Shown piece by piece: positions 3,863-47,425 of a stretch of DNA of 64,000 nt. The notes beneath the pieces are model-generated. The model was given only the letters and a program-made list of their open reading frames with translations. It was not told the DNA's origin and ran no database searches. This stretch comes from Candidatus Latescibacterota bacterium (GTDB taxonomy: Bacteria > Krumholzibacteriota > Krumholzibacteriia > WVZY01 > JAKEHA01): positions 2,603,663-2,667,662 of the forward strand of contig OY970173.1 in the NCBI GenBank assembly GCA_963707635.1, given 5' to 3'. The position numbers and the translations under genes were made by a program. Position 1 is the first letter of the stretch. Each line of letters opens with the position of its first letter.

Positions 3863-4984
3863 TCACTTCAGCACGACCATCTTCCGCGACAACGAACGTT
3901 CGCCGGCGGTGAGCACGCAGAAGTACGTGCCCGACGCGACGCGTTCGCCGTTCTCCCCGGTGCCGTCCCAGGTCGCGAAGTGCCGCCCCTGCGAGAGATC
4001 GCCCTCGACCACCGTCGCCACGCGCGAGCCGCGCACGTCGTGGATGCGCACCACGACGCGCGCCGGCGCGGGGAGGGTGAACGGAATGGTCGTCGAGGGA
4101 TTGAACGGGTTCGGCGAATTCTGCCCGAGCGATAACACGGCCACGGGCGTGCTCACGGTGGCGGGCAACGAGGCTACCTCGTCGCCGCTCTCCTTGACCG
4201 CGGCGATCAGGTAGGTGTACCTCGTTCCCGCCCGGGTCGTGCGATCGACGTACGATGCCGCTTCCACCGGGAGCAAATCGACGAGTCGAATCGGCACCGC
4301 GTCGCCCTCGCCGCGGTAGACGCGCACCCCGCGCACGATTTCGTCCGTCTCGATTCGCCACGACAGCTCCACGCCGTCGTCGCGGACGCGCGCGTCGAAG
4401 GAGCTGATCAGCACCGACACCACCACGATCAGAACCGACCGTTCGCTCGAGTAGGCGCTCATCACGCCCAGGTGGTTGCGGGTGCGAACCGCGAAGTAGT
4501 ATGTGCCGGCCGCGAGCTGGCAGACGTCGTGCGTGCTCGCCGCGCCGGCGTCGACGGTGTACTCGTACTGCGCGGCCTGCCCGCCCGCCACCGAGAACCT
4601 CCCGTAGCTCACCGAATAGCCGACCACGGAGGGGTCGCCGCTCGGGAGCCAGGTCGCGCGCGCGCAACCCGGGGCCGGGCTCGCGAGCGCCGAGAACAAC
4701 GGTGGCGGGGGCGGCTGCAGATTCCCGGCCTCCGCAATCACCAGCACGTCGCCGGTGGTGAGGTCCGCGTCGAATACCGCCGACGCCGCGGAGGACGAAG
4801 CGGCGCTGGCAACCAACGTCCCGTTTCGCTGCACGTCGTACTGTTTCGCGGGTGTCAGGTTGAACAGGCGTACGGTGGTCGGACGGGCCAGCGCGCGCGA
4901 CGGGCCGATTGCGAGCAACGCGACGGTCAAAAGCGCCGCCGCGCGAGCGAATGACTTCGCTCCGTTGCCATCCAAACGATGCAT
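3863..4984 (-). CDS. secreted protein with FN3-like domain and C-terminal T9SS type-A/FlgD-Ig-like sorting domain
   Basis: ATG at comp. 4982-4984 with AAGGAG 8 nt upstream; signal peptide MHRLDGNGAKSFARAAALLTVALLAIGPSRALA; C-terminus ...SPNPFNPSTTIPFTLP...VRIHDVRGSRV...GTYFCVL...RKMVVLK. Confidence 0.75.
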   Translation of the reverse strand: MHRLDGNGAKSFARAAALLTVALLAIGPSRALARPTTVRLFNLTPAKQYDVQRNGTLVASAASSSAASAVFDADLTTGDVLVIAEAGNLQPPPPPLFSALASPAPGCARATWLPSGDPSVVGYSVSYGRFSVAGGQAAQYEYTVDAGAASTHDVCQLAAGTYYFAVRTRNHLGVMSAYSSERSVLIVVVSVLISSFDARVRDDGVELSWRIETDEIVRGVRVYRGEGDAVPIRLVDLLPVEAASYVDRTTRAGTRYTYLIAAVKESGDEVASLPATVSTPVAVLSLGQNSPNPFNPSTTIPFTLPAPARVVVRIHDVRGSRVATVVEGDLSQGRHFATWDGTGENGERVASGTYFCVLTAGERSLSRKMVVLK

Positions 4985-7060: not shown

Positions 7061-10000
7061 ATGCGCAAGACCGTACTGACCCTGCTTCTCGTCTCGATCA
7101 TCGCGGTGCCGCTCTGGATCTCGGGGCACACGGCATCGGTTCGTATCGAGGTCGATGTCCCGACGAGCCCGGGAGACTTTTCCGTCACGGCCGCCGGAAG
7201 GTATACCTCCGTCTCGCCCGTCCCATCCGCCTCCGGATCATTTTTCACCGTTAACGACGTAGGCCGCCCCTCCATCCCGGCGCGCATCGTTTACGTCGCG
7301 TTACCCGACGGCAGGAGTTTCGCCAGCGTCATCGCATCGGCCGAGGGAACCAGCACGCTGGCTCGCGGCGTCGAACTCGCCGTGGCCGCGCCGCCGGCGC
7401 CGGCGCCCGACCTGCCCGCGCCCGGCGTCGCAGTCGCCCAGGATGCACTCGCGCCATACCTCGCGGGCGCGGAATTTCCGTCCGAGCTGGTTCGCTACCT
7501 GGGAAGCGGGACCTGGCACGGCTACACCGTCGCCAGCTTCGCGGTATTTCCGCTGCAAGTGGTGGAAGGCGATCTGGTGCTGCACGCCGACGTCCGGCTC
7601 TCGATCGACACGGAGCCCGCTGCCGGGCCCGGCGCCGAGCGGGCGCTGCGGATGAGCAGCGCGCGCGCGCGCGACATCGAAACGCGGCTGCGCGGTTTGA
7701 TCGCCAACGACGAGGCGCTCGCCACGTATCCTCCCATCCCTCACGACGAACACCGCGGGCCATTCGGCGCGTCGGTTGCGCCCTCGCTCGAAGGCAGCCC
7801 GGTCGACTGCATCATCGTCGCCCCCGCCGCGCTGGCCGCCCCGTTCGACGCGCTGGCGGACTGGAAGACGGCCAAGGGCGTTCCCACCGTCGTCCGCACG
7901 GTCGAGTGGATCGAAGCCAACTACCCTCGCGGGATCGATCGCGCGGAGACCATTCGCTTTTTTCTCCAGGACGCCTACACCAAGTGGGGTGTCCAGTGGG
8001 TGCTCCTGGTGGGTGACACACCCGAGATTCCCCCGCGCTACCTCTACACGGCCTATTACTACGGCGGCACGCTGGTCCCCGCGGACCTCTATTTTGCCTG
8101 CCTCGACGGTTCCTTCAACGCCGACGGTGACACGCGCTTCGGCGAGCAGCCGGCCGACCAGCCCGACCTGTACGCCGAATTGAGCGTGGGACGGCTGCCG
8201 GTGTCAACCCTGGCCGACGCGGCGAATGTGGTCTCGAAGATCATGAGCTACGAGACGCCGCTCGACACCGAGTACGTCGACAAGACGCTGTTCCTGGCGG
8301 AGGTGCTCTTCCCGGCGCCGTGGTCGCCGCCCGCGCCCATCCAACTCAACGGCGGCGACATGGCGGAGTTCGTGCGCATCCGGCACGTGCAGAGCCCCTC
8401 GCGCCGCGTCACCCGGCTCTACGAGACCCCGGCCCTGTTCGCCGGCTCGCTGCCGGAATCGCGCTCCATCGCGATCGATTCGCTCAACGCGGGCTACGAT
8501 TTCGTCTTTCACGTCGGCCACGGTTATCGCTTCAACATGCACTGCGCGGATGAAAACATCGCCATTCCCGACGCGGACGCGCTCTACCACCCGAACCGCT
8601 TCTTCAACCTCTACATGTCGAATTGCACCGCGGCGGCGTTCAATTTCGACTGTCTCGCCGAGCGCATGCTGCGCAATCCCAACGGCGGCGCGGTGTCGGT
8701 AATCGGCGCCGTAAGCAGCTCGTTCGCCGAGATATCGACCGACTACATGGAAGCCTACGCGGGCGCGGTGTTCGACGGCGCGGACCCGGTCCACATTGGG
8801 GACGCATTTGCCGCCTCGCGTGCGTCGCGCACCGCGCTCGCAATGCTCGACGACAATTCCGACCTCTGGACCCACTACGTGTACACGCTCCTGGGCGACC
8901 CCGAGATGACGCTGTGGACCGGCCCCGTGCGCACGCCGGTCGTGAGCCACCCGGCCAGCCTGGTGGCGGGAACCACCGTGGTCGCGGTGGGCGTGGACGT
9001 CGACGGGCTGCCGCAGGCGAACGCGACCGTCTGCCTCTCGAAAGACGGCGAAGACTATCAGGTCGGAACGACCAACGCGGCGGGACAGGCGTCGTTCGTG
9101 CTTTCGACCCGGACCACGGGACAGGTGCGCGTGGTGGTCACCGGTCGCAACCTCGCCCGCCACGAGAGCGCCATCGCGATCGAGTCGGCGGCAAGCGTGC
9201 TGCTCTCGATCGACGAGGTCCTGATCAACGACAATCGCTTCGAGTTTGGAACCTTCGTAATCGGGGACGGAGTCGTGGACGCGGGCGAGGCCGTCGAGTT
9301 GACGCCGACCGTGCGCAACACCGGCGGCGCGGCGTCCGCACCGGCGGTTGCCACCTTGACGACGACGGCCCCGTTCGTAACGATTGCAAACGCTACCGTC
9401 CCGGTGCGTGTGTTGGCCCCGGGCCAGAGCGTGCTCGCCGACGACTCGTGGCGCGTCCAATTCGCGGCCGACGCGCCCGATGGGGCCCTCGCCAGTTTTT
9501 CGGTCACGATCGCGGGGAATGCGACGTGGAGCGACACGTTCTCGGAGACCGTCCACGCCCCGGCGTTCGCGCTCACCTCCCTGCGCACGTCCGACGCGGC
9601 ACCCGTCGGCAACGGCGACGGCGTCATTTCCAGCGGCGAGCAGTTCTTGCTGTTCGTGACGCTCAAGAACCATGGAACCGGAACGGCAGCCGGGCTGGTC
9701 GCGACACTTTCCGCGCTCGACGCCGGAGCCACGGTATTTTCCGGCCTGGCGCAGGTCGGCGACATCGCCGCGCTGGCCGAGCGCGAGTCGGAGTCGGCGT
9801 TCCGTCTCCTCGAGGCCGACGCGACGGTCCAAAACCACCTGCGGCTGATCGTGACGGATACGTACGGGCACTCCCTCACGCACACGATCGAGCTGCGCAA
9901 ACCTGTCGCCCCGGCCATCCAATCGTTCGACGCGAGCCTCGGGGTCGACAAGATGCTCATCCGATGGAATGCAAGTCCCTCGAGCGACGTCGTCGGTTAC

Positions 10001-11776
10001 CGCGTGTACCGTTCGACGTCCGCGACCGGGCCGTTCACGCGCGCGACTCCCGACGTCGTGACGCACACCATGTTCACCGACGCCGGGCTGGCGCCGAACA
10101 CGCGCTACTACTTCGCCGTTACCGCCGTCGACGGGTCGTGGAACGAGAGCGCATTCTCCGCGGTCGGCTCCGCGTCGACCAACCCGCCCCAGCTCGCGGG
10201 CTGGCCGAATTCGCTCGCCGATCCCTCCTCGAATTCACCCGCGATCGGGGACATCGACGGCGACGGCGACCTCGAGGTCGTGATCGGAAACAACCTTCTC
10301 TACGCCTTCGGACACGACGGCGGCGAAGTCCGCGACGGGGACGGCCAGGCGTTGACCTGGGGCGTGTTCTCCGGCCTGGGCAGGGACTTCATCGGTCCGG
10401 CCGCGCTCGCGAAACTGGACGCGCGCACGGGGCTCGATATCGTGGCCGCGGCCGCCACCTCGCGGGAGGTCTACTGTTTCAACGGTGACGGCAGCGTGCT
10501 GCCCGGGTGGCCGCGGCCGACCATCGACGCGGTGCGCGCGGGCGTGGCAGTCGGCGACCTCGACGGCGACGACAGGCCGGAGATCGTCGCGATCGACCAG
10601 GACGCGAATCTGTACGCGTGGCATGCCGACGGATCCGAAGTCCGCGACGGCGACTCGAATCCCGCCACCGACGGCGTTTTCCGCCGTCTGCCGGATACGT
10701 CGCAGATGCAGTACCAGATGCCCGCGCTCGCCGACATCGACCAGGACGGGAAGGACGAAGTGATCATCCCGACCCAGGACAAGAAGCTATACGTGCTGAA
10801 CGAGTTCGCGGCGGACGAGCCGGGTTGGCCGCGCACGCTTCCCAACTACGCGGGCGGCGGAGTCGCGGTGGGCGACATCGACGCCAACGGCGATCTCGAG
10901 ATCGTGGTCACGGTACGGGGTTCCGGAGAGACATACGCGCTGCACCACGACAACACCCAGATGTGGATTCGCTGGCTGCAGCACAACAACTTCTTCAATC
11001 CGTCCCCCGCGCTCGCCGACATCACCGGTGACGGCAAGCTCGAGGTGCTGATCCCGGGCTCCAACGGAAGGCTGTACGCGATCACGCCCACCGGAGCGGA
11101 CGCGCCGGGATGGCCGGTGGTCTATTCGGCGACCACCTACACCGAGTCGTCGCCCATCGTCGCGGACGTGAACGGCGACGGGTCGCCCGACATCCTGCTG
11201 GGCGACGAGGGGGCCTTCATCAACGGCTGGAGATCCAGCGGCGCGCCGCTCGACGGCTTCCCGCTGGTGATGAAGGACTCGGTGCGCGGGACGCCGGCGA
11301 TCACCGACCTGGACGGGGACGGCAGCGTCGAGATCGTCGCGGTCGGGTACGACCGCTCGGTGTACGTGTGGGACATGCCGGGGGCATACAGCGAGGCGAC
11401 GGCGCCGTGGCCGATGTTCCACGCGAACCTCCATCGCAACGGGGTGTATGGCTTCGTCGTGCCGACGGGCGTCGGCGACTCGCCACGGGCGGCCGGGCTG
11501 ACGCTCGAACCGAACTACCCGAATCCCTTCAACCCCACGACGTCGATCGTGTTCGAGATTCCGGATGGTTCGGCGCAGAGAGTTTCGCTGGTCGTTTACG
11601 ACGTGACCGGTGCGCGCGTGCGCACGCTGCACGAGGGAGTGGTGCAACCGGGCCGCCACGTCGTCGCGTGGGACGGGCGCGGCGAATCGGGGGCCGCGGT
11701 GGGTTCCGGCGTCTACTTCTACCGGCTCGCCACCCCGCAGCAAGCGCTCACCCGCAAGATGGTGCTCTTGAAGTAA
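7061..11776 (+). CDS. giant secreted multidomain protein: peptidase C25 (gingipain-like) domain + FG-GAP/VCBS beta-propeller repeats + FN3-like region + C-terminal T9SS type-A/FlgD-Ig sorting domain
   Basis: Signal/TM N-terminus MRKTVLTLLLVSIIAVPLWI; C25-like block DCIIVAPAALAAPFDALADWKTAKGVPT...WVLLVGDTPEIPPRYLY...YFACLDGSFNADGD...LSVGRLPV; at least 7 repeats of x-GDIDGDGDLEVV / VGDLDGDDRPEIV / ADIDQDGKDEVI type (FG-GAP); C-terminus NYPNPFNPTTSIVFEIP...VYDVTGARVRTL...GVYFYRLA...TRKMVLLK. Confidence 0.8.
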   Translation: MRKTVLTLLLVSIIAVPLWISGHTASVRIEVDVPTSPGDFSVTAAGRYTSVSPVPSASGSFFTVNDVGRPSIPARIVYVALPDGRSFASVIASAEGTSTLARGVELAVAAPPAPAPDLPAPGVAVAQDALAPYLAGAEFPSELVRYLGSGTWHGYTVASFAVFPLQVVEGDLVLHADVRLSIDTEPAAGPGAERALRMSSARARDIETRLRGLIANDEALATYPPIPHDEHRGPFGASVAPSLEGSPVDCIIVAPAALAAPFDALADWKTAKGVPTVVRTVEWIEANYPRGIDRAETIRFFLQDAYTKWGVQWVLLVGDTPEIPPRYLYTAYYYGGTLVPADLYFACLDGSFNADGDTRFGEQPADQPDLYAELSVGRLPVSTLADAANVVSKIMSYETPLDTEYVDKTLFLAEVLFPAPWSPPAPIQLNGGDMAEFVRIRHVQSPSRRVTRLYETPALFAGSLPESRSIAIDSLNAGYDFVFHVGHGYRFNMHCADENIAIPDADALYHPNRFFNLYMSNCTAAAFNFDCLAERMLRNPNGGAVSVIGAVSSSFAEISTDYMEAYAGAVFDGADPVHIGDAFAASRASRTALAMLDDNSDLWTHYVYTLLGDPEMTLWTGPVRTPVVSHPASLVAGTTVVAVGVDVDGLPQANATVCLSKDGEDYQVGTTNAAGQASFVLSTRTTGQVRVVVTGRNLARHESAIAIESAASVLLSIDEVLINDNRFEFGTFVIGDGVVDAGEAVELTPTVRNTGGAASAPAVATLTTTAPFVTIANATVPVRVLAPGQSVLADDSWRVQFAADAPDGALASFSVTIAGNATWSDTFSETVHAPAFALTSLRTSDAAPVGNGDGVISSGEQFLLFVTLKNHGTGTAAGLVATLSALDAGATVFSGLAQVGDIAALAERESESAFRLLEADATVQNHLRLIVTDTYGHSLTHTIELRKPVAPAIQSFDASLGVDKMLIRWNASPSSDVVGYRVYRSTSATGPFTRATPDVVTHTMFTDAGLAPNTRYYFAVTAVDGSWNESAFSAVGSASTNPPQLAGWPNSLADPSSNSPAIGDIDGDGDLEVVIGNNLLYAFGHDGGEVRDGDGQALTWGVFSGLGRDFIGPAALAKLDARTGLDIVAAAATSREVYCFNGDGSVLPGWPRPTIDAVRAGVAVGDLDGDDRPEIVAIDQDANLYAWHADGSEVRDGDSNPATDGVFRRLPDTSQMQYQMPALADIDQDGKDEVIIPTQDKKLYVLNEFAADEPGWPRTLPNYAGGGVAVGDIDANGDLEIVVTVRGSGETYALHHDNTQMWIRWLQHNNFFNPSPALADITGDGKLEVLIPGSNGRLYAITPTGADAPGWPVVYSATTYTESSPIVADVNGDGSPDILLGDEGAFINGWRSSGAPLDGFPLVMKDSVRGTPAITDLDGDGSVEIVAVGYDRSVYVWDMPGAYSEATAPWPMFHANLHRNGVYGFVVPTGVGDSPRAAGLTLEPNYPNPFNPTTSIVFEIPDGSAQRVSLVVYDVTGARVRTLHEGVVQPGRHVVAWDGRGESGAAVGSGVYFYRLATPQQALTRKMVLLK

Positions 11777-13241: not shown

Positions 13242-13302
13242 GGGAGATTCCTTCGGGTGACGACGCGCCCGGTCACGTGGACCGGGCGCGTCGCGTGCCG
13301 TA

Positions 13303-22920: not shown

Positions 22921-22948
22921 TCAGGCACGATCACGGGTGCCACGGGAC

Positions 22949-23036
22949 GGTGTGTGCTCCCTCCGCCGCCGTCCTCCCGCGCACAATGGTTGAAATGCGC
23001 GACTGCGGATTGGCGTCAGAGGGAGCACACACCGCC
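22949..23036. repeat. palindromic intergenic repeat element, family 2 (copy A)
   Basis: 15-bp terminal inverted repeat GGTGTGTGCTCCCTC...GAGGGAGCACACACC; core CGCCGCCGTCCTCCCGCGCACAATGGTTGAAATGCGCGACTGCGGATTGGCGTC nearly identical to reverse complement of 40848-40937. Confidence 0.7.
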
Positions 23037-23043
23037 CAACGAG

Positions 23044-23145
23044 ACTCCGGGCGATATGTCGGGCGGAGTGCGATTTCGCGAGGCGCGCTATAGACCTGGC
23101 GCGCGAAGCGCATGAGCGCGGAGCCCGATATATCGCCCGGACTCC
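23044..23145. repeat. palindromic intergenic repeat element, family 1 (copy A)
   Basis: ACTCCGGGCGATATGTCG...CGATATATCGCCCGGACT termini; about 85% identical to reverse complement of 36572-36666; sits between convergent genes. Confidence 0.7.
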
Positions 23146-23161
23146 CCCATTGTGCAACGCG

Positions 23162-24610
23162 CTACCGCAGGCTGATCCAGACCGATTTCTTTTCCAGGTA
23201 CATGTCGAGGGCGTCGGCGCCGAGTTCGCGGCCGAACCCGCTTTCGCGGTAGCCGCCGAAGGGCGAGGCGGGGTGATAGACGTTGTAGGTGTTCACCCAC
23301 ACCGTCCCGGCTCGAAGCGCCGCCGCGACGCGGTGCGCGCGCGCGGCGTCCTGGGTCCACACCCCGGAGGCCAGACCGTAGCAGCTGTCGTTCGCCATCT
23401 TGACCGCGTCCGCTTCGGTGTCGAACGGAATCACACACAGCACCGGGCCGAAGATCTCATCGCGCGCCACCGTCATCTGGTTGGTCACGCCGGTCAGGAC
23501 GGTCGGCTCGAGGTAGTATCCGCGCCCGCCGACCGCGGCCGCGCGGCCGCCGGCGGCGAGTTTCGCGCCTTCGCGCACCCCGGCCTCGACGCAGGCCAGG
23601 ATTCCATCGCGGTGCGACTTCGACACCTGGGGTCCCAGGCGGGTCTTGTCGTCGAGCGGGTCACCGGGAGTGTAACGCGCCATCTTGGTCTTCACGAGCT
23701 CCACGAACTCGTCGTGGACGGCGCGTTCCACGAACAACCGCGAGCCCGCCGCGCAGACCTCACCCTTGTTGTAGAAGATGCCGCTGCACGCGCCCTGCGC
23801 CGCCGCGTCCAGTTTCGCGTCTGCGAAAACGATGTTCGGGGACTTGCCTCCCAGTTCCAGCGAGACGCGCTTGATCGTTCCGGCCGCGGAACGCATCACG
23901 GTGCGGCCGACCTCCGTCGACCCGGTGAAGGCGACCTTGTCCACGCCGCGCGCGTCGAGCAGCGCCTGGCCGGCGATCGAGCCGCGGCCGGGCACCACGT
24001 TCACCACGCCGGGCGGCACCCCGGCCTCAAGGCACAGCGCCCCGAGCTTGAGAGCCGTCAGCGGCGTGATCTCGGAAGGCTTGATGACCGCGACACACCC
24101 GGCCGCGAGCGCCGGGGCCAGCTTCCACACCGTGAGCAGCAGGGGGAAGTTCCAGGGCACGATCATGCCGACGACGCCGACCGGCTCGCGCAGCGTGTAG
24201 GTGAGGAAACCGGGGATGGTCGGGATGCTCTCGCCGGAAAGCTTGTCGGCCCAGCCCGCGTAGTAGCGCAGCAGGCTGACCACGAAAGGCCCCTCGATCT
24301 TTTCCGACTCGAAGATCGGCTTGCCTTGATTGAGCGTTTCCAGCCGCGCGACTTCCGCGGCGTCGCGCTCGAAGAGGTCGGCGAGCTTCCACAGGATCTT
24401 CGCGCGCGTGCCGCCGTCGAGCTTGCTCCACGCCCCGGAGTCGAAAGCGGCCCGCGCCGAGGCGACGGCGGCTTCGACGTCCTTCACGGTCGCGCAGGCG
24501 ACGTCGCACAGCTTCTCTTCGGTCGCGGGGTTGACGAGCGTGGACACGGCGCGGTCGCTCGCGTCCACCCACTCGCCATTGATCAGCAGCTTGGTGTGCT
24601 TGATGTCCAT
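23162..24610 (-). CDS. NAD(P)-dependent aldehyde dehydrogenase (position and context consistent with BoxD, 3,4-dehydroadipyl-CoA semialdehyde dehydrogenase)
   Basis: ALDH superfamily motifs ELGGKSP, catalytic Cys region GEVCAAGSRLFV, PWNFP; located directly downstream of boxC-boxB. Confidence 0.75.
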   Translation of the reverse strand: MDIKHTKLLINGEWVDASDRAVSTLVNPATEEKLCDVACATVKDVEAAVASARAAFDSGAWSKLDGGTRAKILWKLADLFERDAAEVARLETLNQGKPIFESEKIEGPFVVSLLRYYAGWADKLSGESIPTIPGFLTYTLREPVGVVGMIVPWNFPLLLTVWKLAPALAAGCVAVIKPSEITPLTALKLGALCLEAGVPPGVVNVVPGRGSIAGQALLDARGVDKVAFTGSTEVGRTVMRSAAGTIKRVSLELGGKSPNIVFADAKLDAAAQGACSGIFYNKGEVCAAGSRLFVERAVHDEFVELVKTKMARYTPGDPLDDKTRLGPQVSKSHRDGILACVEAGVREGAKLAAGGRAAAVGGRGYYLEPTVLTGVTNQMTVARDEIFGPVLCVIPFDTEADAVKMANDSCYGLASGVWTQDAARAHRVAAALRAGTVWVNTYNVYHPASPFGGYRESGFGRELGADALDMYLEKKSVWISLR

Positions 24611-24757
24611 TGGATTCCTTCTGTAGCGTTCTCGCGGTCAACCACGCGGGTCCTGTCGCCGACAGCCCGGTGCGGCTCGCTTCGTCCGCGCCTTCGCACT
24701 AGACTCGCTCGCCGCCCGGGCGCCCGTCGGCGCCACCCGCTCGTGCTCGATGAAGCA

Positions 24758-26176
24758 CTACAACCGCACGTACTCGAAGTCGAGCGGGCGGCCGTGAATA
24801 CCGTGCTGCGGGGGAGCGATCCAGTTCGCGAACTTGCCGCGCTCGGTGACCAGGAACTGCACGCTCTTCACATAGTCGCGGTCCGCGCGCGTGGGCAGGA
24901 ACTCGTCGCGGCGCGATTCGAACTCGTCTTTGGAGATCATGTTCCCGTGCGGGTCGAAGTGCGCCCTGCTGTAGGTCCCGACCAGGCGATGGAAGCGGAC
25001 AGACGGGAGCAGGATGCGCAGCCGGCTGTCCTCCTGCTCCAGGATCTTGTTCCAGCGCGCGACCGCCCGCTCGCAATCCTCGATGTAGGCATCGCGGAGC
25101 ACCGCGTTCATGGCGCGACGCATCGGTATTTCCACTTCGTGCAGCCGCCGTTGCTCCTCGTCGACACCCAGGTAGCCGTAGTTACCCTCGCGCCCGACTG
25201 GATCCGGATAGAGCTTTCGGTTCGCCTCGTTGAAGCGCCCCTTGAGGCCGTGCGCGAAGTAATTCGCCGCGTTGCTCGAATCCTCGTTGCCGAACAGATC
25301 GAGCGACACCGAAAACCAGTAGTTGATGTACTTCTGGATGATGTCGAGCGGAATGCCGCCGTAGGGCCGCACGTCTTCGCTCTCGTTCTCCCGCATCAGC
25401 TGGGCGGTGCGCCGGATGGTCCGCGCCAGGCCGGTTTCGCCCACGAAGAGGTGGTGCGCCTCCTCGGTGAGCATGAAGCGGGTGGTTCGCGAGAGCGGCG
25501 TGAAGGCGCTCTCGGCGAGCGAACCGAGCTGGTATTTTCCGTCGCGGTCGGTGTAGGTCGCGAAGCAGAAGAAGTCGAGCCAGTCGTCGATTGGGTCGTT
25601 GAAGGTGGACAGGAGCCGCGGCGAATCCGCGTCCCCCGACCGGCGTTCGAGCATCTCCTCGGCCTCGTCGCGACCGTCCTTGCCGAAATACGAATGGAGG
25701 AGGTAGACCATCGCCCACAGATGGCGGGCCTCTTCGACGTTCACCTGGAAGAGGTTGCGCATGTCGTATTGCGACGGGGCCGACAGCGCCAGCCGGCGCT
25801 GCTGCTCCACCGAACCGGGTTCGGTGTCGCCCTGCGTGACGATCAGCCGGCGCAGTTCATTTCTATGCTCGCCGGGCACGTCCTCCCAGCATTCCGCTCC
25901 GATGTAGTCGCCGAAGTGGATCTGGCGTTCGCCCTTGACCGGTGCCAGGAATATTCCCCAGCGGTACTCGGGCATACGCACGTAGTCGTACACCGCCCAG
26001 CCGGACGAATCGACGCTCACTGCGGTGCGCAGGTAGATCTCGTTCTCCTGGTGGACGACCGGCCCCTGGTCCCGCCACCATTCCATGAACTGCGGGTGCC
26101 AGCGCTCGAGCGCGCGCAGCAGCTTCTGGTTCTCCTTGAGATTGACGTTGTTGGGTATGAGTTCTTTGTAGTCCAT
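24758..26176 (-). CDS. boxB: benzoyl-CoA 2,3-epoxidase (benzoyl-CoA oxygenase) component B
   Basis: N-terminus MDYKELIPNNVNLKENQKLLRALERWHPQFMEWWRDQGP matches the characteristic BoxB start; di-iron EExH-type motif (EEAHHLF); about 472 aa. Confidence 0.75.
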   Translation of the reverse strand: MDYKELIPNNVNLKENQKLLRALERWHPQFMEWWRDQGPVVHQENEIYLRTAVSVDSSGWAVYDYVRMPEYRWGIFLAPVKGERQIHFGDYIGAECWEDVPGEHRNELRRLIVTQGDTEPGSVEQQRRLALSAPSQYDMRNLFQVNVEEARHLWAMVYLLHSYFGKDGRDEAEEMLERRSGDADSPRLLSTFNDPIDDWLDFFCFATYTDRDGKYQLGSLAESAFTPLSRTTRFMLTEEAHHLFVGETGLARTIRRTAQLMRENESEDVRPYGGIPLDIIQKYINYWFSVSLDLFGNEDSSNAANYFAHGLKGRFNEANRKLYPDPVGREGNYGYLGVDEEQRRLHEVEIPMRRAMNAVLRDAYIEDCERAVARWNKILEQEDSRLRILLPSVRFHRLVGTYSRAHFDPHGNMISKDEFESRRDEFLPTRADRDYVKSVQFLVTERGKFANWIAPPQHGIHGRPLDFEYVRL

Positions 26177-26177
26177 C

Positions 26178-27827
26178 CTAGATCCTGCTCCAGTCGAACT
26201 CCGGTGAGTGCGGCTTGCCGTACGATGTGAGCGCGCCGCGCTCCCCCACCGCGTTGGGCCGCGTGAATATCCAGTTCTGCCACGCGGAGAGCCGGGCGTA
26301 AATCCGGCTCTCCATCGACTCGGGACCCACGAAACGGAGGTTGGCTTCCATCCCGGTCAGCGCGTCCGGCGAGAGCGAGCGGCGCTCTTCGACCGCCATG
26401 CGGATCCCATCCTCCCAATCGATGTCGTCCAGTGCTTCGGTGACCAGACCCAGCTCCGCGGCCTCTGCGGGAGGGATCGGCTCGCCCCGCCGTTCGAGCG
26501 CGCGCGCCACCGATTGCGGCGAACCGTAAAACCGGTTCTCGAGCCGGGAGAGTCCGTGCGCCATCGGACAGCGCCCCGCGTTGTGCGAGCTGAGCGCGAT
26601 CGCGTTGTCGCTCTCCGCTTCGTCGAGCATGAACGATCGGTCGCACGCCAGCGCGATTTCGAAGAGGCTCCCGGCGAAACACGAACCGGGCACGATTATA
26701 GCGAAGAAGGTGCGGGCCGTCACGTCGATCATCTTGAGGGTTCGCGCCTGCTGCAGCAACACCTCGCGCACGAACCAGTGGTCCGCGCGCCCGGAGAGCG
26801 CTTCGTCCAGGGCGAGCACGTGCTCCCGCTTCCCGACCGTCTCGAAGGTGACCAGCCCGATCTGCGGATGGTTGAAGCGCAGCTCCAGTATCGCGTGGCG
26901 GAGCTCGCGCCACATGCGCAGCGCATACCACGACGCGCCGAGCCCCGCGGGGTCCGCCGGAATGCTCGCGTCGGCCGCCTCCGGGCCGCGGACGGTGATT
27001 TTCGCCGAGCGCTCCGCCGGCCGGATCTCGACGGTCACGAACCGGTAGCGGAGCGAATCACCGTCGGTCTCGGGTTCGACGGACTCGAGCGCCACGCCTT
27101 TGGCGTCGTTACCCTTGCCCGCCAGCTCGACCAGCCGCGAACGCATCGCCTCCGCGTAGACCGACTTCGGGTGCACGAAGTCCACCAGCCCCCATTCCAG
27201 CGCCTTCTTCGCCTTCGCGCCCTCGGCGATGGTGCAGAACGCGTCGGCCCGGTCGCGCCGGACCCGGCGCTTGTCGACCAGACGGGTAAGCCCGCCGGTT
27301 CCGGGCAGCACGCCCAGCAGCGGAACTTCGGGCAGGCTGACCGCGGAGCTGCGGTCGTCGACGAGATGGATCTCGTCGCACGCGAGCGCCAGCTCGTAAC
27401 CGCCGCCCGCCGCGGCGCCGTTCAAGGAGGCCACGTACTTCTGCCGGCTCTTCGCGGTCGCTTCCTCCATGTTGATGCGGGTCTCGTTGGTAAATTTGCA
27501 GAAATTCACTTTGTGGGTGTGCGTCGAGGTCCCGAGCATGAAGATATTCGCGCCGGCGCAGAAGATCTTCTCGTTCATGCTTTCGATGCACACGACCGAG
27601 ACTTCGGGGTGCTCGAAGCGCAGGCGTGTGACCGCGTCGTCGAGCTCGATGTCCACGGCGAGGTCGTACGAGTTCATCTTGAGCTTGTAGCCGGGGCGCA
27701 GCCCCTCGTCTTCCTGGACGTTCATCTTGAGCCACGCGATGGGCCCCTCGACGACGAGTTTCCAGTGCTTGTAGGTGTCGGGATGCGCGGCGAAGCGAAT
27801 CCGTTCCATGCGCGTGTTGGTTTCCAT
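26178..27827 (-). CDS. boxC: 2,3-epoxybenzoyl-CoA dihydrolase (benzoyl-CoA-dihydrodiol lyase), crotonase family
   Basis: HPDTYKHWKLVVEGPIAWLKMNVQEDEGLRPGYKLKMNSYDLAVDIELDDAVTRLRFEHPEV matches BoxC N-terminal region; about 549 aa two-domain enoyl-CoA hydratase-like; start overlaps boxB region (1-nt gap). Confidence 0.75.
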   Translation of the reverse strand: METNTRMERIRFAAHPDTYKHWKLVVEGPIAWLKMNVQEDEGLRPGYKLKMNSYDLAVDIELDDAVTRLRFEHPEVSVVCIESMNEKIFCAGANIFMLGTSTHTHKVNFCKFTNETRINMEEATAKSRQKYVASLNGAAAGGGYELALACDEIHLVDDRSSAVSLPEVPLLGVLPGTGGLTRLVDKRRVRRDRADAFCTIAEGAKAKKALEWGLVDFVHPKSVYAEAMRSRLVELAGKGNDAKGVALESVEPETDGDSLRYRFVTVEIRPAERSAKITVRGPEAADASIPADPAGLGASWYALRMWRELRHAILELRFNHPQIGLVTFETVGKREHVLALDEALSGRADHWFVREVLLQQARTLKMIDVTARTFFAIIVPGSCFAGSLFEIALACDRSFMLDEAESDNAIALSSHNAGRCPMAHGLSRLENRFYGSPQSVARALERRGEPIPPAEAAELGLVTEALDDIDWEDGIRMAVEERRSLSPDALTGMEANLRFVGPESMESRIYARLSAWQNWIFTRPNAVGERGALTSYGKPHSPEFDWSRI

Positions 27828-27955
27828 TTCTTGTTCTCCCGTTCAATCGTCGTCGCACCTGCGCGGGTCCTGTCGCTGACCCACCCCGCGGCATCCGCCG
27901 CGGGGGCCCCGTGTCAGCGCCACCCGCTGGTGCCTGACCGACGCGCGGCTGACTG

Positions 27956-28987
27956 CTACTTCACCTTGATCACGATCTTGCCCAGCGCGCGGCGTGCTTC
28001 CATCGCGCGGTGCGCCTCGGCCGTGTCCTTCAACTCGTACACCGCTCCCACCACGGCTTTCATCCTGCCCGCAAGTATCAGTTTCAGCACCGCCATGAGC
28101 TCGCTGCGCGAGCCCATGGTCGAGCCGATCACCTCGAGCTGGCGGTAGAAGATTTGACGGAGGTCCTCTTCGGGATTATACCCGGTGGTGGCGCCGCACG
28201 TCACCAGCCGCCCGCCGCGCGAGAGGCTTTGCAGGCTCTTGACCCACGTGTCCTTCCCCACGTAGTCGACCACCATGTCGACCCCGCGGCGATTCGTCTC
28301 CTGGCGGATCCGCTTCACGACATCCTCGCGCGAGTAGTCGATGAGCACGTCGGCGCCGAGGCCGCGGCACAGCGCCAGCTTCTCCGGGCTGCTCGCTGCC
28401 GCGAACACGCGCGCGCCGGCCACTTTCGCGATCTGGATGCACGCGATCCCGACCCCGGCGGAGGCGCCGAGCACCAGGACGTCTTCGCCGGCGCGCAGCC
28501 TGCCGCGCGTGATCAGCATCCTCCACGCCGTGACGAACACGAGCGGGATCGACGCCGCGTCCTCGAACGACATCGACCCGGGAATCGGAATCGCGTTCGC
28601 GGCCGGGATCACGATCCGTTCGCAGCAGGTGCCGCTGCGCGTCTCGCCGATCAGTTGGTACGACACGCACAAGGTTCCGTCGCCGCGCTGGCAGAACTCG
28701 CACGCCCCGCACGAGATCGACGGGTTGATCAGCACGCGGTCGCCGACTTTGACCGCATCCACGCCGTCCCCGACCTCGTGCACCACCCCGGCCGCGTCGC
28801 AACCGGGGATATGCGGCAGCACGGTCTTGACCCCGGGCAGTCCGCGTCGCAAGAAAAGGTCGATGTGGTTGAGCGATGCCGCGTGGACGTCGATCTTCAC
28901 CGTGCCGGGGAGCGTGTCCGGTTCGGGCCTCGTCCCCAGGGTGAGAACCTCGGGGCCGCCGTGCTTCTCGTAGTAGATCGCTTTCAC
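27956..28987 (-). CDS. zinc-binding alcohol dehydrogenase / quinone oxidoreductase family (MDR)
   Basis: Start set at GTG comp. 28985-28987 (MKAIYYEKHGGPEVLTL...); GHEAAG-like PGCDAAGVV, GxGxxG nucleotide motif VLGASAGVG; 5' extension in track ORF is Arg-rich noise. Start codon choice uncertain. Confidence 0.65.
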   Translation of the reverse strand: MKAIYYEKHGGPEVLTLGTRPEPDTLPGTVKIDVHAASLNHIDLFLRRGLPGVKTVLPHIPGCDAAGVVHEVGDGVDAVKVGDRVLINPSISCGACEFCQRGDGTLCVSYQLIGETRSGTCCERIVIPAANAIPIPGSMSFEDAASIPLVFVTAWRMLITRGRLRAGEDVLVLGASAGVGIACIQIAKVAGARVFAAASSPEKLALCRGLGADVLIDYSREDVVKRIRQETNRRGVDMVVDYVGKDTWVKSLQSLSRGGRLVTCGATTGYNPEEDLRQIFYRQLEVIGSTMGSRSELMAVLKLILAGRMKAVVGAVYELKDTAEAHRAMEARRALGKIVIKVK

Positions 28988-29004
28988 GCTTGGCGTCGTG
29001 CGCG

Positions 29005-29421
29005 TCAGGGTGCGTCGCGGAACGCTTCGAAGCGCCGGCGCCACGCCGGCGGGATGGGCACGGGCGCGAAGTTGTCGTCGATGGCGACCGTCTTGATGGT
29101 GGCACGCGCGCTGGTCGCCCCGTCGGGCAGGCGTACGGCGGTGTAGCGCAGGGTCAGCGAGGTGCGGCCGATCTCGGCCACTTCCAGCTCGACGCGAACG
29201 CGCTCGCCGTAGCGCAGCGGCTTGAGGAACTCGGTCTCGATCCGCACGCTGGGAAAGCCGATGCGGTCGCCGTTCACCAGCTCGGGGTACGAAACCCCGA
29301 GCGCCTGGGCGAACCACTCCTCGAATGCCTGGTGGAAATAGTGAAAGAACCGCGGGTAGTACACGACGTGCGCGTGGTCGATTTCACCGAAGCGCACCGG
29401 GAGCTCGGTCGCGAACTTCAT
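29005..29421 (-). CDS. acyl-CoA thioesterase, 4HBT/YbgC-like hotdog fold
   Basis: MKFATELPVRFGEIDHAHVVYYPRFFHYFHQAFEEWF... hotdog thioesterase signature; ATG overlaps PCD stop (ATGA). Confidence 0.7.
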   Translation of the reverse strand: MKFATELPVRFGEIDHAHVVYYPRFFHYFHQAFEEWFAQALGVSYPELVNGDRIGFPSVRIETEFLKPLRYGERVRVELEVAEIGRTSLTLRYTAVRLPDGATSARATIKTVAIDDNFAPVPIPPAWRRRFEAFRDAP

Positions 29422-29753
29422 CGACCGAAGGCCCCGTCCGCCCGCGCGGCCAGAATGAAGTCGCTCTCGGTGAGGCCGTCGATCTTGTGGGTCCAGATCG
29501 TGAGCGTCACGCGGCCCCACCCGAGATGCACGTCCGGGTGGTGCCCTTCGGCCTCCGCGATCTCACCCACGCGGTTGGTGAAGTCCAGCGCCTGCCGGAA
29601 ATCGTCAAAGGCGTACGACTTCTCCAGGTGGTGTTCGTCGACCACCTTCCAGTCGCCGCCGAGTTTGGCCGCCACGGCGCGCAGCGCCTCGCCCTTCAGC
29701 GGCGGGACATCCCCCCGGCACGGAACGCAATGCTTCTTCGCGAGCTCCGACAT
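29418..29753 (-). CDS. pterin-4a-carbinolamine dehydratase
   Basis: ...EGHHPDVHLGWGRVTLTIWTHKIDGLTESDFILAA... PCD signature [EDKH]-x-H-[HN]-P. Confidence 0.75.
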   Translation of the reverse strand: MSELAKKHCVPCRGDVPPLKGEALRAVAAKLGGDWKVVDEHHLEKSYAFDDFRQALDFTNRVGEIAEAEGHHPDVHLGWGRVTLTIWTHKIDGLTESDFILAARADGAFGR

Positions 29754-29772
29754 GGCATGACCGCAAGGCGGT

Positions 29773-30384
29773 CTACTTCGCCGCCTTCAGCCGGCGCGCG
29801 ACTTCGTCCCAGTTGATCACGTTCCAGAAGGCGGTGACGTAATCCGGCCGGCGATTCTGGTACTTGAGATAGTAGGCGTGCTCCCAGACGTCGAGACCCA
29901 GGATCGGCGTCAGCCCCTCGGAGAGCGGCGAGTCCTGATTGGCGGTCGACGTCACCACGAGCGCGCCGTCCTTCTTCACCGAGAGCCAGGCCCAGCCGCT
30001 GCCGAAGCGCGTTTTCGCGGCGGTCTCGAACTGGGTCTTGAACGCGTCGAAGGCGCCGAACGCCTTCTCCATCGCACTGGCGAGGTCCCCCGCGGGCTTG
30101 CCGCCGCCACCTGGCTTCATGACGGTCCAGAACAGTTCGTGGTTCGCGTGACCCCCGCCGTGGTTTCGAATCACGGTGCGGATGTCTTCCGGGATCGAGG
30201 ACAGCTCGCGGAGCAAGTCGCCCACCGATTTCGTGGCCAGCTCCGGGTGTTTCTCGAGCGCGGCGTTTGCGTTGTCGATATAGGTCTGATGGTGCTTGGT
30301 GTAATGGATCTCCATCGTGCGCGCGTCGATGTGCGGCTCCAACGCGTCGTATGCGTACGGGAGTGCGGGTAGCTTGAACGCCAT
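29773..30384 (-). CDS. sodA: Fe/Mn superoxide dismutase
   Basis: [23 protein letters not shown]...[20 protein letters not shown] metal-ligand motifs; AAGGAG RBS. Confidence 0.85.
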
Positions 30385-36571: not shown

Positions 36572-36666
36572 GCAGTCGATATATCGGACTCCGCGCTCAT
36601 GCGCTCGCGCGCACATGTGGGAATGCGCGACTCGCGAAATCGCGCTTCGCCCGATATATCGACTGC
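36572..36666. repeat. palindromic intergenic repeat element, family 1 (copy B)
   Basis: Perfect 15-bp terminal inverted repeats GCAGTCGATATATCG...CGATATATCGACTGC; internal imperfect palindrome; between convergent thiC and TPR/HEAT gene. Confidence 0.7.
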
Positions 36667-40847: not shown

Positions 40848-40937
40848 TGGCGGGATGCACTCCCTCAAGACGCCAATCCGCAGTCGCGCATATCAACGTG
40901 CGCGCGGGAGGACGGCGGCGGAGGGAGTGCATCCCGC
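40848..40937. repeat. palindromic intergenic repeat element, family 2 (copy B, inverted relative to copy A)
   Basis: Perfect 18-bp inverted repeat GGCGGGATGCACTCCCTC...GAGGGAGTGCATCCCGCC flanking a core that is the reverse complement of the 22949-23036 core. Confidence 0.7.
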
Positions 40938-44648: not shown

Positions 44649-46007
44649 ATGGCTTCGCGCATCGTCCCCTATCTGGCTCTCGCCGTTGCCCTGCTGACCG
44701 GCGCCACCCAGGCCGCGGCCGCAACGGGAGACATCACGCTCGTAGGCCACCTTAGCCTGCCCACGGCCGTCCGCATTACCAACGTCTGGGGCTACTACGA
44801 CTACGACACCGGCAAGGAGTACGCGCTGGTCGGTGACTGGTATACCGGGGTCTATGTCATCGACGTCAGCATTCCCGCCAACCCTATCGAAGTCACGAAG
44901 GTGCTCGGGGTACCCGGCTTCGATCTGAAGCCCTTCGGCCACTACCTGTACACCTGCAACGGCAACAACATCGGAAACACCTCGCGGATCATTGACTTGT
45001 CGAACCCGGCCTTCCCGGTGGTGCTGCCGAACACGTTTCATTCGTGCCACACCATATCGATTTCCACGCGCGGGGTGATGTACACGAACTATGTCGGGGT
45101 GCGCATCTATGATCTCGTCAACGATCCCACGCACCCGGACTCGCTCTTCTATATCCAGACCAACGCGGGGCACGATACCACGCCGCGCGGCGACCGCCTG
45201 TACGACTTCGCTGGCGCCATGATGAACATTTGGAACGTGTCCGACCCGTCGGCGCCAACGCTGATCGGGTCGGACGACAACCCCCTGGTCCAGTACTACC
45301 ATGGCGGGGACGAGTCGAAGGACCACGACTATCTCTACATGTGCGACGAATTCGCGGTGTCGCCGACGCCCGACATCGTGGTCTACGACATCTCGGACCC
45401 TTCGATTCCCACCCGGATCGGAAGCATCAACGACACGAGCTCGCGCGTTCACCAACTCTACGTGGTCGGCGACCTGATGTTCGTCGGGTACTATACGGCG
45501 GGGTTCAAGGTGTTCGACATCTCCAACCCGGGCAATCCCGTCCTGGCGGACGAGTTCGACACGTCGCCGTATCAGACCGAAACCAGCCCCGACGTCTACA
45601 GCGGCGCCTACAACGCGTACCCGTTTGCGCCGTCGGGAATCGTGTATGTGGCCGATCACCCGACCGGGCTCTATCTGTTTTCCGTCGAAGGCCACACCGG
45701 CCAGGTGACGGCGGCCCGGGAATCGCCGTCGACGGCGACGCTGTCCCAGAACTTCCCCAACCCGTTCAATCCCTCGACGACGATCGCATTCGAGCTCGTG
45801 CGCCGGGAGCACGTGATGCTGCGCGTCTACGACGTCCGCGGCGGCCTGGTACAGACGCTGGTCGACGAGACGCTCGCCGCAGGAGCGCACACCGCGCCGT
45901 GGTCCGGCCTCGATGCGTCCGGGCAGGCAGTTGCGTCTGGCGTCTACTACTACCAGCTCAACGCGGGACCCACCTCGCTGACCCGGCGCATGGTGCTCCT
46001 CAAGTAG
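44649..46007 (+). CDS. LVIVD-repeat beta-propeller protein (choice-of-anchor-B-like) with C-terminal T9SS type-A/FlgD-Ig sorting domain
   Basis: Signal peptide MASRIVPYLALAVALLTGATQAAA; LVIVD-like repeats (YVIDVS, IYDLV, VVYDIS, KVFDIS); C-terminus NFPNPFNPSTTIAFEL...VYDVRGG...GVYYYQL...TRRMVLLK. Confidence 0.75.
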   Translation: MASRIVPYLALAVALLTGATQAAAATGDITLVGHLSLPTAVRITNVWGYYDYDTGKEYALVGDWYTGVYVIDVSIPANPIEVTKVLGVPGFDLKPFGHYLYTCNGNNIGNTSRIIDLSNPAFPVVLPNTFHSCHTISISTRGVMYTNYVGVRIYDLVNDPTHPDSLFYIQTNAGHDTTPRGDRLYDFAGAMMNIWNVSDPSAPTLIGSDDNPLVQYYHGGDESKDHDYLYMCDEFAVSPTPDIVVYDISDPSIPTRIGSINDTSSRVHQLYVVGDLMFVGYYTAGFKVFDISNPGNPVLADEFDTSPYQTETSPDVYSGAYNAYPFAPSGIVYVADHPTGLYLFSVEGHTGQVTAARESPSTATLSQNFPNPFNPSTTIAFELVRREHVMLRVYDVRGGLVQTLVDETLAAGAHTAPWSGLDASGQAVASGVYYYQLNAGPTSLTRRMVLLK

Positions 46008-46087: not shown

Positions 46088-47425
46088 ATGCCGAAAAAAG
46101 CCGCCGGATCCATCCCATTGATCGCCGCCTGCTGGCTCGCCGCGCTGGCGGGGACGCCGCGCGCCAGCGTGGACATCACCCTCGTCGGCCGCATGCACCT
46201 GCCGAACAGCCTTTTTGTGACCAACGTCGTCGGCTACGTAGATTCCGGGACGATGCGCGAGTACGCGATCCTGGGAGACGACCACGACCGGGTTTACATC
46301 GTGGACGTCACCGACCCGACCGCCCCACGGCTGGCGTCGCAGGTCTCCGGGGTGCCGGGGTTCGACGTCAAGACCTGGGATCACTACCTGTACACGTGCG
46401 ACGGCAACACCAGCGGCTTCGACAGCCGCATCGTCGACCTCGCCGACCCGGCAAATCCGCAGATTCTCCCCGACGGCTTTGCGTCGGCGCACACGCTGCA
46501 GGTCGCCGCGAACGGGATCCTCTTCGCCGAGTACCCGGGGCTTCGCCTCTACGACCTCGCGGCCCCCACGGCGCCGGTGCTTCTCTACCAAACCGGCGGG
46601 GAAGGCCACGACTCGACCCCGCGCGGCACGCGGCTGTACGACTTTCACGGCCGCGACGGAACCGTGATCTGGGATGTCAGCAACCCCTCGAACCCGGATA
46701 CGCTCGGGGTCGTCGACGACCCGGCGATTGTTTTCCACCACAGCGGTGACGTCACCCCCGACGAGCGCTTTCTCTATATCTGCGACGAGCTCATGACCGG
46801 CCCGGGCGCCGACATCTCGATCTGGGACATCGTGAGCGCGGCGGCGCCGGTTCGCGTGGGACAGATCGCGGACGCGAACTCCAGCGTGCACAACATCTAC
46901 ATCGTGGGCACCCTCGCCTACGTCGCCTACTACGCCGCCGGTTTCCGCGTGTACGACCTGACGGATCCCGTGCACCCGGTGCTCGCCGGCGCCTACGACA
47001 CCTCGAAGCGCTCCGGCGAGGGCTTCATCGGCGCCATCGGCGCCTACGCGTATTCGCCGAGCGGTAACATCTTCGTGTGCGACATCGAGAACGGGCTTTT
47101 CATTTTCTCGGTGACGCCCACCACCGCTTCGCCGGCCACGGGAGACGCGGGCTTCGTGCTCGAACAGAACGCGCCCAACCCGTTCAACCCGTCGACGCGG
47201 ATTCCGTTCGAGCTCACCAGCGGCGGGCGCGTCACGCTCGACGTCTACGACGTCCAGGGGCGCCGCGTGCGCCAGGTGCTGGACCGCGTTCTCCCGGCGG
47301 GCGCGCACGAAGCGGAATGGGACGGGCGCGACGACGCCGGCACGTCGGTGGCCTCCGGCGTCTACTTCTACCGCATGGCCTCGCTCACGCGGGTCGAGAC
47401 ACGACGCATGGTGTTGCTGAAGTAA
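46088..47425 (+). CDS. LVIVD-repeat beta-propeller protein, tandem paralog, with T9SS type-A/FlgD-Ig sorting domain
   Basis: About 45% identical to 44649..46007 over full length; C-terminus NAPNPFNPSTRIPFEL...VYDVQGRRV...GVYFYRM...TRRMVLLK. Confidence 0.75.
   Translation: MPKKAAGSIPLIAACWLAALAGTPRASVDITLVGRMHLPNSLFVTNVVGYVDSGTMREYAILGDDHDRVYIVDVTDPTAPRLASQVSGVPGFDVKTWDHYLYTCDGNTSGFDSRIVDLADPANPQILPDGFASAHTLQVAANGILFAEYPGLRLYDLAAPTAPVLLYQTGGEGHDSTPRGTRLYDFHGRDGTVIWDVSNPSNPDTLGVVDDPAIVFHHSGDVTPDERFLYICDELMTGPGADISIWDIVSAAAPVRVGQIADANSSVHNIYIVGTLAYVAYYAAGFRVYDLTDPVHPVLAGAYDTSKRSGEGFIGAIGAYAYSPSGNIFVCDIENGLFIFSVTPTTASPATGDAGFVLEQNAPNPFNPSTRIPFELTSGGRVTLDVYDVQGRRVRQVLDRVLPAGAHEAEWDGRDDAGTSVASGVYFYRMASLTRVETRRMVLLK

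Follow-up and report, generated by a model that had tools for sequence, protein, structure and literature searches.

Covarying hairpin repeats at the gene junctions of a box operon in a Krumholzibacteria-like lineage

Why do two genes of one benzoyl-CoA pathway cluster carry the same pair of sequence blocks ahead of their start codons, with a compensatory base change between the copies? The question is raised by a 64-kb stretch of a 3.2-Mb contig (OY970173.1), hereafter called the window, to which all window-level counts refer and which BoxC homologues place in a Krumholzibacteria-like lineage. The genes around the blocks are all encoded on the minus strand, in the order pterin dehydratase, 4HBT thioesterase, zinc-type oxidoreductase, boxC, boxB and NAD-dependent aldehyde dehydrogenase (ALDH), and the blocks occupy the gaps before boxC and before the ALDH gene. 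An earlier note on this DNA interpreted them as a conserved RNA stem in the 5' leaders or as a bipartite operator of the BoxR/BzdR type. We propose that they are probably neither, and instead belong to a lineage-specific palindromic repeat of the same kind as the repetitive extragenic palindromic (REP) elements, the miniature inverted-repeat transposable elements (MITEs) and the Correia elements, which settled between the genes of an operon that was compact ancestrally.

The two hairpins and their covariation

On the coding strand, the block AGCGGGTGGCGCYGAC is followed by the block GTCRGCGACAGGACCCGCG in both gaps, which are 128 nt (before boxC) and 147 nt (before the ALDH gene) in length. 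Both blocks were found exactly twice in the window, at 27913-27928 and 27862-27880 in the boxC gap and at 24726-24741 and 24645-24663 in the ALDH gap, and when up to three mismatches were allowed in the 19-mer, the observed count was reached in none of 100 dinucleotide shuffles. The arms of 16 and 19 nt represent the two sides of one hairpin with 13 paired positions and a fixed internal loop. The 6-bp outer stem, P1 (GCGGGU/ACCCGC), is followed by an asymmetric loop with GG on the 5' side and ACAGG on the 3' side, and then by a 7-bp inner stem, P2 (CGCYGAC/GUCRGCG), where the T/A of the boxC copy and the C/G of the ALDH copy differ in both arms. The apical hairpin beyond P2 is variable; it separates the arms by 32 nt in the boxC copy and by 62 nt in the ALDH copy, and its sequences in the two copies are unrelated. 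The blocks, the gap lengths, the separations and the paired change were all found as originally described.

We refer to this hairpin as the short element (S). The first copy, at the oxidoreductase-boxC junction, is located at 27862-27928 on the minus strand, with a core folding energy of -45.7 kcal/mol and a score of 80.8 bits in a covariance model built from five copies. Its 5' side consists of the P1 arm at 27922-27927, the GG at 27920-27921 and the P2 arm at 27913-27919, and is followed by the apical hairpin of 32 nt at 27881-27912, the second P2 arm at 27874-27880, the ACAGG at 27869-27873 and the second P1 arm at 27863-27868. The second copy, at the boxB-ALDH junction (24645-24741, minus strand), has a core folding energy of -66.8 kcal/mol and scored 24.4 bits (E = 0.014) in the same model. 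Here, the 5' side comprises P1 at 24735-24740, GG at 24733-24734 and P2 at 24726-24732, the apical domain of 62 nt spans 24664-24725, and the 3' side comprises P2 at 24657-24663, ACAGG at 24652-24656 and P1 at 24646-24651. The complete intergenic sequences were predicted to fold at -65.3 kcal/mol (z = -3.2) before boxC and at -78.2 kcal/mol (z = -4.0) before the ALDH gene, and none of 200 shuffles was as stable.

The 3' block ends 34 nt ahead of the ATG of both genes. The spacer before boxC (27828-27861, minus strand) is unstructured and contains the ribosome-binding region GGGAG, and the spacer before the ALDH gene (24611-24644, minus strand) contains AAGGAA. Both are part of the inserted segments, and the boxC spacer is missing from relatives without the insert. 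The equal distance noticed previously thus stands, at 34 nt, but since the 3' block ends between 13 and 46 nt before the next start codon in the eight copies that precede one, the identity of the two values is a coincidence of this genome.

No match in Rfam 15 covered either of the window elements at E ≤ 10, and none was obtained for the copies in L165, L184 and L171, which are described below. Neither a sigma-70 promoter nor an intrinsic terminator was called inside the elements; the sequence after P1 is not T-rich, as would be expected for the U tract that follows the GC-rich stem of a terminator. Two further readings of the ACAGGA loop were considered by eye only and rejected: a K-turn, for which the tandem G-A pairs are lacking, and a CsrA site (A(N)GGA), the GGA of which does not lie in an apical loop.

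Covariation was examined for the arms only, in an alignment of five intact copies. P1 and both strands of the internal loop are invariant, while six of the seven P2 pairs show double-sided changes. The 5' arm of P2 reads CGCUGAC, CGCCGAC, CGCCGAG, CACCAGG or CGGCAUG, each with a matching partner. As many as 98.5% of the cells are paired, the observed values were not reached in any of 500 shuffles, and the pairing falls to about 30% when the partner columns are slid. An RNAalifold analysis of the full-length copies independently recovered P1, the loop, P2 and an apical stem. These numbers refer to few sequences that were found by homology. The compensatory change described in the earlier note thus belongs to a real covariation pattern, and the stem itself survives as a structure, with one hairpin and more pairing than had been described. 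However, covariation alone is no proof of a function at the RNA level, as processes acting on the DNA can also keep palindromic repeats symmetric.

Empty sites, rapid turnover and a copy in a phage

To place the elements in an evolutionary context, 160 loci were fetched from genome and metagenome collections, and the closest relatives were added by exact protein look-up. The same gene order was observed in L082, L001, L083, L085 and L084, with 75-83% BoxC identity, in which the distance from the oxidoreductase stop to the boxC start is about 0-17 nt and boxB is separated from the ALDH gene by 5-9 nt. There is no element in P0003 (90% BoxC identity), where the corresponding gaps are 21 and 2 nt. 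L166 (87% BoxC identity) has an insert of 129 nt before boxC and a gap of 0 nt before the ALDH gene, and inserts at both junctions were only identified in a crown clade with about 94% BoxC identity (the window, L161-164, L165 and L184). In a neighbor-joining tree of BoxC, the insert-free P0003 is placed between L166 and the crown clade, and at least two gain or loss events must therefore have occurred at one site.

The covariance model gave no match in relatives with 67-83% BoxC identity. According to the earlier note, the motif should be conserved upstream of box genes in related genomes, and absence from these would speak against a regulatory role; it is absent from L001, L082-L085 and P0003, which by the note's own measure refutes the regulatory reading. 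Nor did the suggested co-regulation of two transcription units fit the comparative data. The ALDH gene abuts boxB in the relatives, with gaps of 0-9 nt, and copies are also located after the ALDH gene and in a phage. Judging from the gene spacing, the ALDH gene was not a separate transcription unit ancestrally, and the genes form one operon in the relatives.

The core of S measures 65-97 nt. It was found before boxC in the window, L166, L184 and, in a degenerate form, L165; between boxB and the ALDH gene in the window; and after the ALDH gene in L184 and L165, where no gene follows the stop codon on that strand. A distinct, longer hairpin (Lg; about 150 nt), the core of which (GATCCTCGCTCGCTCCTGCGCGAAGGGCCTCC) is highly conserved, occurs alone (boxB-ALDH junction of L184), nested in the base of S (before boxC in L161 and at the boxB-ALDH junction of L165) or in tandem with S (after the ALDH gene in L165). 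Copies of Lg are located at 7816-7971 and 12675-12818 in L161, at 3566-3735 and 5240-5390 in L165, at 9826-9975 in L184 and at 1541-1683 in L185. A remnant is located in the window at 27934-27947 (CGCGCGTCGGTCAG), inside the 5' flank of the first S copy (27929-27955, minus strand), and matches the 3' end of Lg, with 14 of 14 nt identical to positions 3702-3715 in L165. This suggests that the flank may represent a mostly deleted Lg in tandem with S, much like the arrangement after the ALDH gene in L165. No matches to Lg were obtained in Rfam, nor to its core on viral contigs.

The boxB-ALDH copy in L161 is truncated, and the corresponding gap in L185 (45-75) contains only about 26 nt (TCAGCG-CCCGCG) that read TCTCAGCGCCCGCGCAGG and look like the deletion footprint of a collapsed 3' arm. 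Thus, at about 94% BoxC identity, the same junction may be occupied by S, by Lg, by an S base in which Lg is nested, by a truncated copy or by a remnant of 26 nt. Similarity is higher between the copies of one genome than between those found at one site in sister genomes. The two copies in L184 are 92.8% identical to each other, and the copies located at the same site before boxC in L184 and the window are 83.8% identical. Likewise, the insert before boxC in L161 matches the boxB-ALDH insert in L165 at about 87%. These patterns point to copying within genomes, possibly by transposition or gene conversion. As judged from the aligned loci, the inserts constitute a family with rapid turnover, the members of which continue to appear and disappear, to replace one another and to become nested.

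L165 has lost the oxidoreductase gene next to the element, apart from a fragment of 35 nt. At positions 1-480 of this locus, the gene is replaced by other upstream DNA in which a divergent gene starts, and degenerate, duplicated 5' arms of the element are located at the junction, which suggests a repeat-associated rearrangement.

Viral contigs were scanned with a bipartite pattern consisting of the 5' arm of P1 with GG, a gap, and ACAGG with the 3' arm of P1, using three spacings and without any demand for pairing in P2. A total of 17 matches were obtained, which is roughly the level expected by chance, and 16 of these were rejected as members of the family because they have three or fewer contiguous P2 pairs. 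The remaining match, on the phage contig L171, has a perfect P2 of 8 bp, the sequence of which (CGGCAUGU/ACAUGCCG) is unrelated, topped by a long apical hairpin, and obtained 44.3 bits (E = 4e-6) in a covariance model built without it. This copy is intergenic and located about 13 nt before the start of the gene for the major tail protein, within a block of head and tail genes. Its apex is weakly similar to that of the boxB-ALDH copy in the window, with a score reached by 65 of 2000 shuffles. The phage copy shows that the family is not specific to box genes. When only the 3' block was used to search the viral contigs, more than 120 matches attributable to chance were obtained, including one in a collagen-like repeat gene (L251) and one in an ordinary open reading frame (ORF; L258), and no matches were obtained with the apex of the short type.

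A proposed mobile palindrome and its alternatives

Several features of S are those of known mobile palindromes. Like the REP elements, it is GC-rich, imperfectly palindromic and found only in intergenic DNA; like MITEs, it has terminal inverted repeats (the arms of 16 and 19 nt) and is polymorphic for presence at orthologous sites. The REP and BIME elements of enterobacteria and pseudomonads also occur at junctions inside operons, in tandem and composite arrangements, and vary in ways that preserve the structure. REPs are about 20-40 nt long, number in the hundreds per genome and are associated with RAYT transposases (IS200/IS605-like Y1 transposases), whereas the core of S is longer, has a hypervariable apex and occurs in 2-4 copies per locus, with no further copies in the 64 kb and no RAYT gene in the window. 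The Correia elements of Neisseria (CREE, also known as NEMIS) and similar MITEs such as ERIC, RUP and bcr1 resemble S in having inverted-repeat ends, a size of roughly 70-160 bp, presence-absence differences between close strains, a frequent location 5' of genes and, as predicted for S, inside mRNAs, and copies in phages or prophages. However, CREE end in defined terminal repeats, duplicate a TA target, contain promoters and IHF sites and exceed 100 copies in each genome. For S, neither a duplicated target nor a promoter nor a large number of copies was found, and the sequences are unrelated.

We therefore favor, as the probable explanation, a palindromic repeat of this general kind that is specific to the lineage. 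S would be young, and is one of several hairpin-repeat families in the Krumholzibacteria-like lineage. Copies would recently have been added at the intercistronic junctions of a pre-existing tight operon (oxidoreductase, boxC, boxB, ALDH), and they may have spread with the help of a hairpin-recognizing transposase encoded elsewhere, or by gene conversion between copies. The copies are almost certainly co-transcribed with the genes, because they are located inside the operon in the sense orientation. The transcripts are predicted to fold into very stable RNA hairpins, which would separate formerly abutting cistrons, bring along a new spacer for ribosome binding and could uncouple the translation of adjacent cistrons. 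The hairpins could also serve as processing sites, for example for RNase III, as stabilizing barriers to exonucleases, or as partial terminators, and thereby shift the expression of the three gene blocks relative to one another. The invariance of P1 and the asymmetric loop, next to a P2 and an apex that are free to vary, suggests that some protein may recognize the base of the hairpin. There are precedents for such effects: REP elements are co-transcribed and can affect mRNA stability, bcr1 and other transcribed repeats display compensatory changes at the RNA level (PMC3184786), and the Correia elements are polymorphic between strains, located 5' of genes and found in a prophage region, with hairpins that are cleaved or bound by RNase III and changes in expression (PMC2649163).

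Some observations weigh against a repeat of this kind. The orientation relative to the neighboring genes is the same in all intact copies, which a selfish palindrome need not show. No direct repeat indicative of a target-site duplication, as expected for a MITE, was seen when filled and empty junctions were compared, and the inserted segments also contain flanks without palindromic symmetry, which vary from genome to genome. Neither a transposase nor a recombinase gene turned up in the scan of the window ORFs. A filter-free scan of the 64-kb window with the covariance model retrieved only the two operon copies, and in about 2 Mb of further sequence, a scan that took structure into account retrieved only operon copies and L171. 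A search for spurious ORFs, in which a profile of the open frame in Lg was compared to 5.8 billion proteins, retrieved only the already known ORF. The copy number of S thus looks low and local within the window and the approximately 2 Mb in which dispersal was followed.

The main rival, which we consider a serious although rather unlikely alternative, is that S is a dedicated cis-acting RNA element, such as a protein-binding leader or an intercistronic signal for processing or stabilization, recently recruited and selected for tuning the expression of boxCB and the ALDH gene, and that the same factor from the host serves the tail gene of the phage. The shared sense orientation of the intact copies, the invariance of P1 and the GG/ACAGG loop while P2 covaries, and the location of eight copies at 13-46 nt before a start codon, with the ribosome-binding site left free, would all fit such a role, as would the similar placement of the phage copy. 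The layout of a lower stem, an asymmetric loop and an upper stem also resembles the RNase III sites in phage T7, which are orientation-specific intercistronic hairpins repeated in one transcription unit. With 24-35 predicted pairs interrupted by the GG/ACAGG loop, S has the interrupted duplex of at least about 20 bp that is characteristic of such hairpins, for which a position inside a transcript would follow from the operon context, and the L171 copy is found in a late-gene region, a setting comparable to that of the phage-borne T7 sites. Yet, the sequences are unrelated, and cleavage of S is a conjecture by analogy. The strand test for selection at the RNA rather than the DNA level, in which G-U pairs were counted against C-A, gave 8 G-U pairs on the sense strand and 2 on the antisense strand for the short type, which would fit an RNA function, but the overall asymmetry is 28 versus 20 and the long type leans toward the antisense strand. 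Furthermore, a dedicated signal would not be expected to be missing from most relatives with the same operon, to occur after the ALDH gene without a following gene, to leave truncated and remnant copies or to swap its apex rapidly. The absence of Rfam matches does not help this hypothesis either, and the uniform orientation could have been inherited through local copying.

A bolder idea extends the protein recognition suggested above for the base of the hairpin. It is conceivable, but clearly unlikely in our assessment, that the base (P1 with GG/ACAGG, any paired P2 and any apex) is the recognition site of a dedicated protein common to the lineage and one of its phages. This would imply a new hairpin-guided mobilization system or a new intercistronic signal for RNA processing or antitermination, which would serve the late genes in the phage and uncouple the expression of boxCB and the ALDH gene in the host.

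We also considered the possibility that the copies are folded-strand recombination sites, similar to the attC sites of integrons, that flank the boxCB and ALDH modules in direct orientation, so that these could be excised or exchanged. The architectures are parallel: the outer arms are conserved, the asymmetric spacer is unpaired, the inner stem covaries, and the terminal structure varies and differs widely in length; copies are found behind one gene unit after another, all oriented alike; and the oxidoreductase gene in L165 was removed by a rearrangement next to an element. However, the arms GCGGGTGG...ACAGGACCCGC do not fit the RYYYAAC/GTTRRRY consensus, no tyrosine recombinase or integrase was found in the window, and the phage contains a single copy. 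The identical gene order in relatives without the element implies that the genes did not arrive as mobile cassettes. We consider this interpretation very improbable.

Lower still is our confidence in a bipartite DNA operator for a benzoyl-CoA-responsive regulator, of the BoxR/BzdR type or another, that would co-regulate two transcription units. Identical inverted half-sites before two genes of one pathway could be taken to suggest an operator, and BoxR/BzdR operators are inverted repeats near benzoyl-CoA pathway genes. However, the spacing of the half-sites ranges from 32 and 62 nt up to about 150 nt among the copies, which is incompatible with a simple dimeric operator. The BoxR/BzdR operators consist of TGCA repeats, typically the palindrome ATGCACTATAGTGCAT, at promoters beside the boxR gene (PMC6449761), features of which S shows none: no TGCA-N6-TGCA site was found in the whole window and no TGCA pair in the two intergenic sequences. 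An XRE/shikimate-kinase-type regulator of the BoxR type was not found among the window ORFs scanned, nor a boxR/bzdR-type gene among the called genes of L161, L184 and L166. The element is, moreover, lacking in relatives with the same genes, which form one operon there, and is found 3' of the ALDH gene and in a phage. Finally, a chance resemblance of two GC-rich intergenic regions, for which the base composition and the chance frequency in the window of the 16-mer with three mismatches might be invoked, is refuted by the exact 16-mer and 19-mer pairs in the same order and orientation and by the homologous copies in five other genomes and one phage contig.

If a mobile palindrome is indeed the correct explanation, the locus serves as a caution: a compensatory change of textbook appearance before two genes of one pathway would be the product of a repeat family and not the mark of a pathway regulator. 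The comparison documents hairpin-repeat families in an uncultured phylum, with a turnover far faster than that of the flanking genes, with nesting, with a location beside a deletion and with a copy on a phage contig. Should the hairpins undergo processing or stop exonucleases, this would be a natural example of repeats that rewire the stoichiometry of expression inside a catabolic operon.

The box cluster and other repeats in the window

The genes next to the elements are all on the minus strand. A gene of the zinc-type alcohol dehydrogenase/quinone oxidoreductase family (27956-28987; 343 amino acids from a GTG at 28987) is located directly upstream of the first S copy. It is followed by boxC (26178-27827), encoding 2,3-epoxybenzoyl-CoA dihydrolase (TIGR03222, 767.9 bits), boxB (24758-26176), encoding subunit B of benzoyl-CoA 2,3-epoxidase (TIGR03225, 689.4 bits), both with scores that exceed the curated cut-offs, and the ALDH gene (23162-24610), which is the last gene of the operon. 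The cluster at 23162-30384 is minimal and atypical, with genes for superoxide dismutase, pterin dehydratase, thioesterase and oxidoreductase in addition to boxC, boxB and the ALDH gene, and no boxA, benzoate-CoA ligase or regulator gene was found near it in the annotation of the window. This layout is kept across the Krumholzibacteria-like relatives.

Matches to a sigma-70-like sequence (GTGACG-N17/18-TATAAT) were observed on the minus strand at 28175-28204, inside the coding sequence of the oxidoreductase, and at 26695-26723, inside that of boxC. The former is located in a stretch that codes for a conserved peptide, and this stretch is the sole piece of the oxidoreductase gene that has been kept in L165 (about 285-320), approximately 170 nt upstream of boxC. 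Because of this selective retention so close to boxC, the match might represent an internal promoter.

The window also contains two other dispersed families of palindromes. The first, H2, has arms of about 46 nt and is present at 23043-23144, just downstream of the ALDH gene, and at about 36577-36661, between thiC and a HEAT-repeat gene that converge on the gap, where it folds at z = -7.5. A copy related to H2 was also observed downstream of the ALDH gene in L082, a relative with 83% BoxC identity. The copy at 23043-23144 matches positions 12831-12921 in L161 and 1697-1787 in L185 on the opposite strand, and the segment between the inverted arms thus appears to have flipped between close relatives. 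The second family, H3, has arms of 26 nt and is present at 22945-23037 and, about 18 kb further on, at about 40849-40927; this second copy is close to two divergent genes and folds at z = -6.2. The second copies of H2 and H3 are located 13-18 kb from the first and both fold strongly, which shows that this genome carries REP-like repeats and speaks for the reading of S as one of them.

The next best match to the covariance model of S, at 50630-50681 on the plus strand (21.3 bits, E = 0.06), falls in the linker of a MutY-like ORF. Its hairpin folds at -43 kcal/mol (z = -3.8) and has the ends CGGGUGG...GACCCGGGCG; the match is probably due to chance. A comparison of the window to itself revealed two further short, near-perfect palindromes at 13261-13293 and 61818-61854, the first of which is intergenic. 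Finally, four coding segments, at 3903-4130, 11482-11724, 45747-45967 and 47135-47373, show about 68-70% identity at the DNA level. At least two of these coincide with FlgD_ig-like domains at the C-terminal ends of large secreted or peptidase proteins, and the four segments likely represent a shared C-terminal module.

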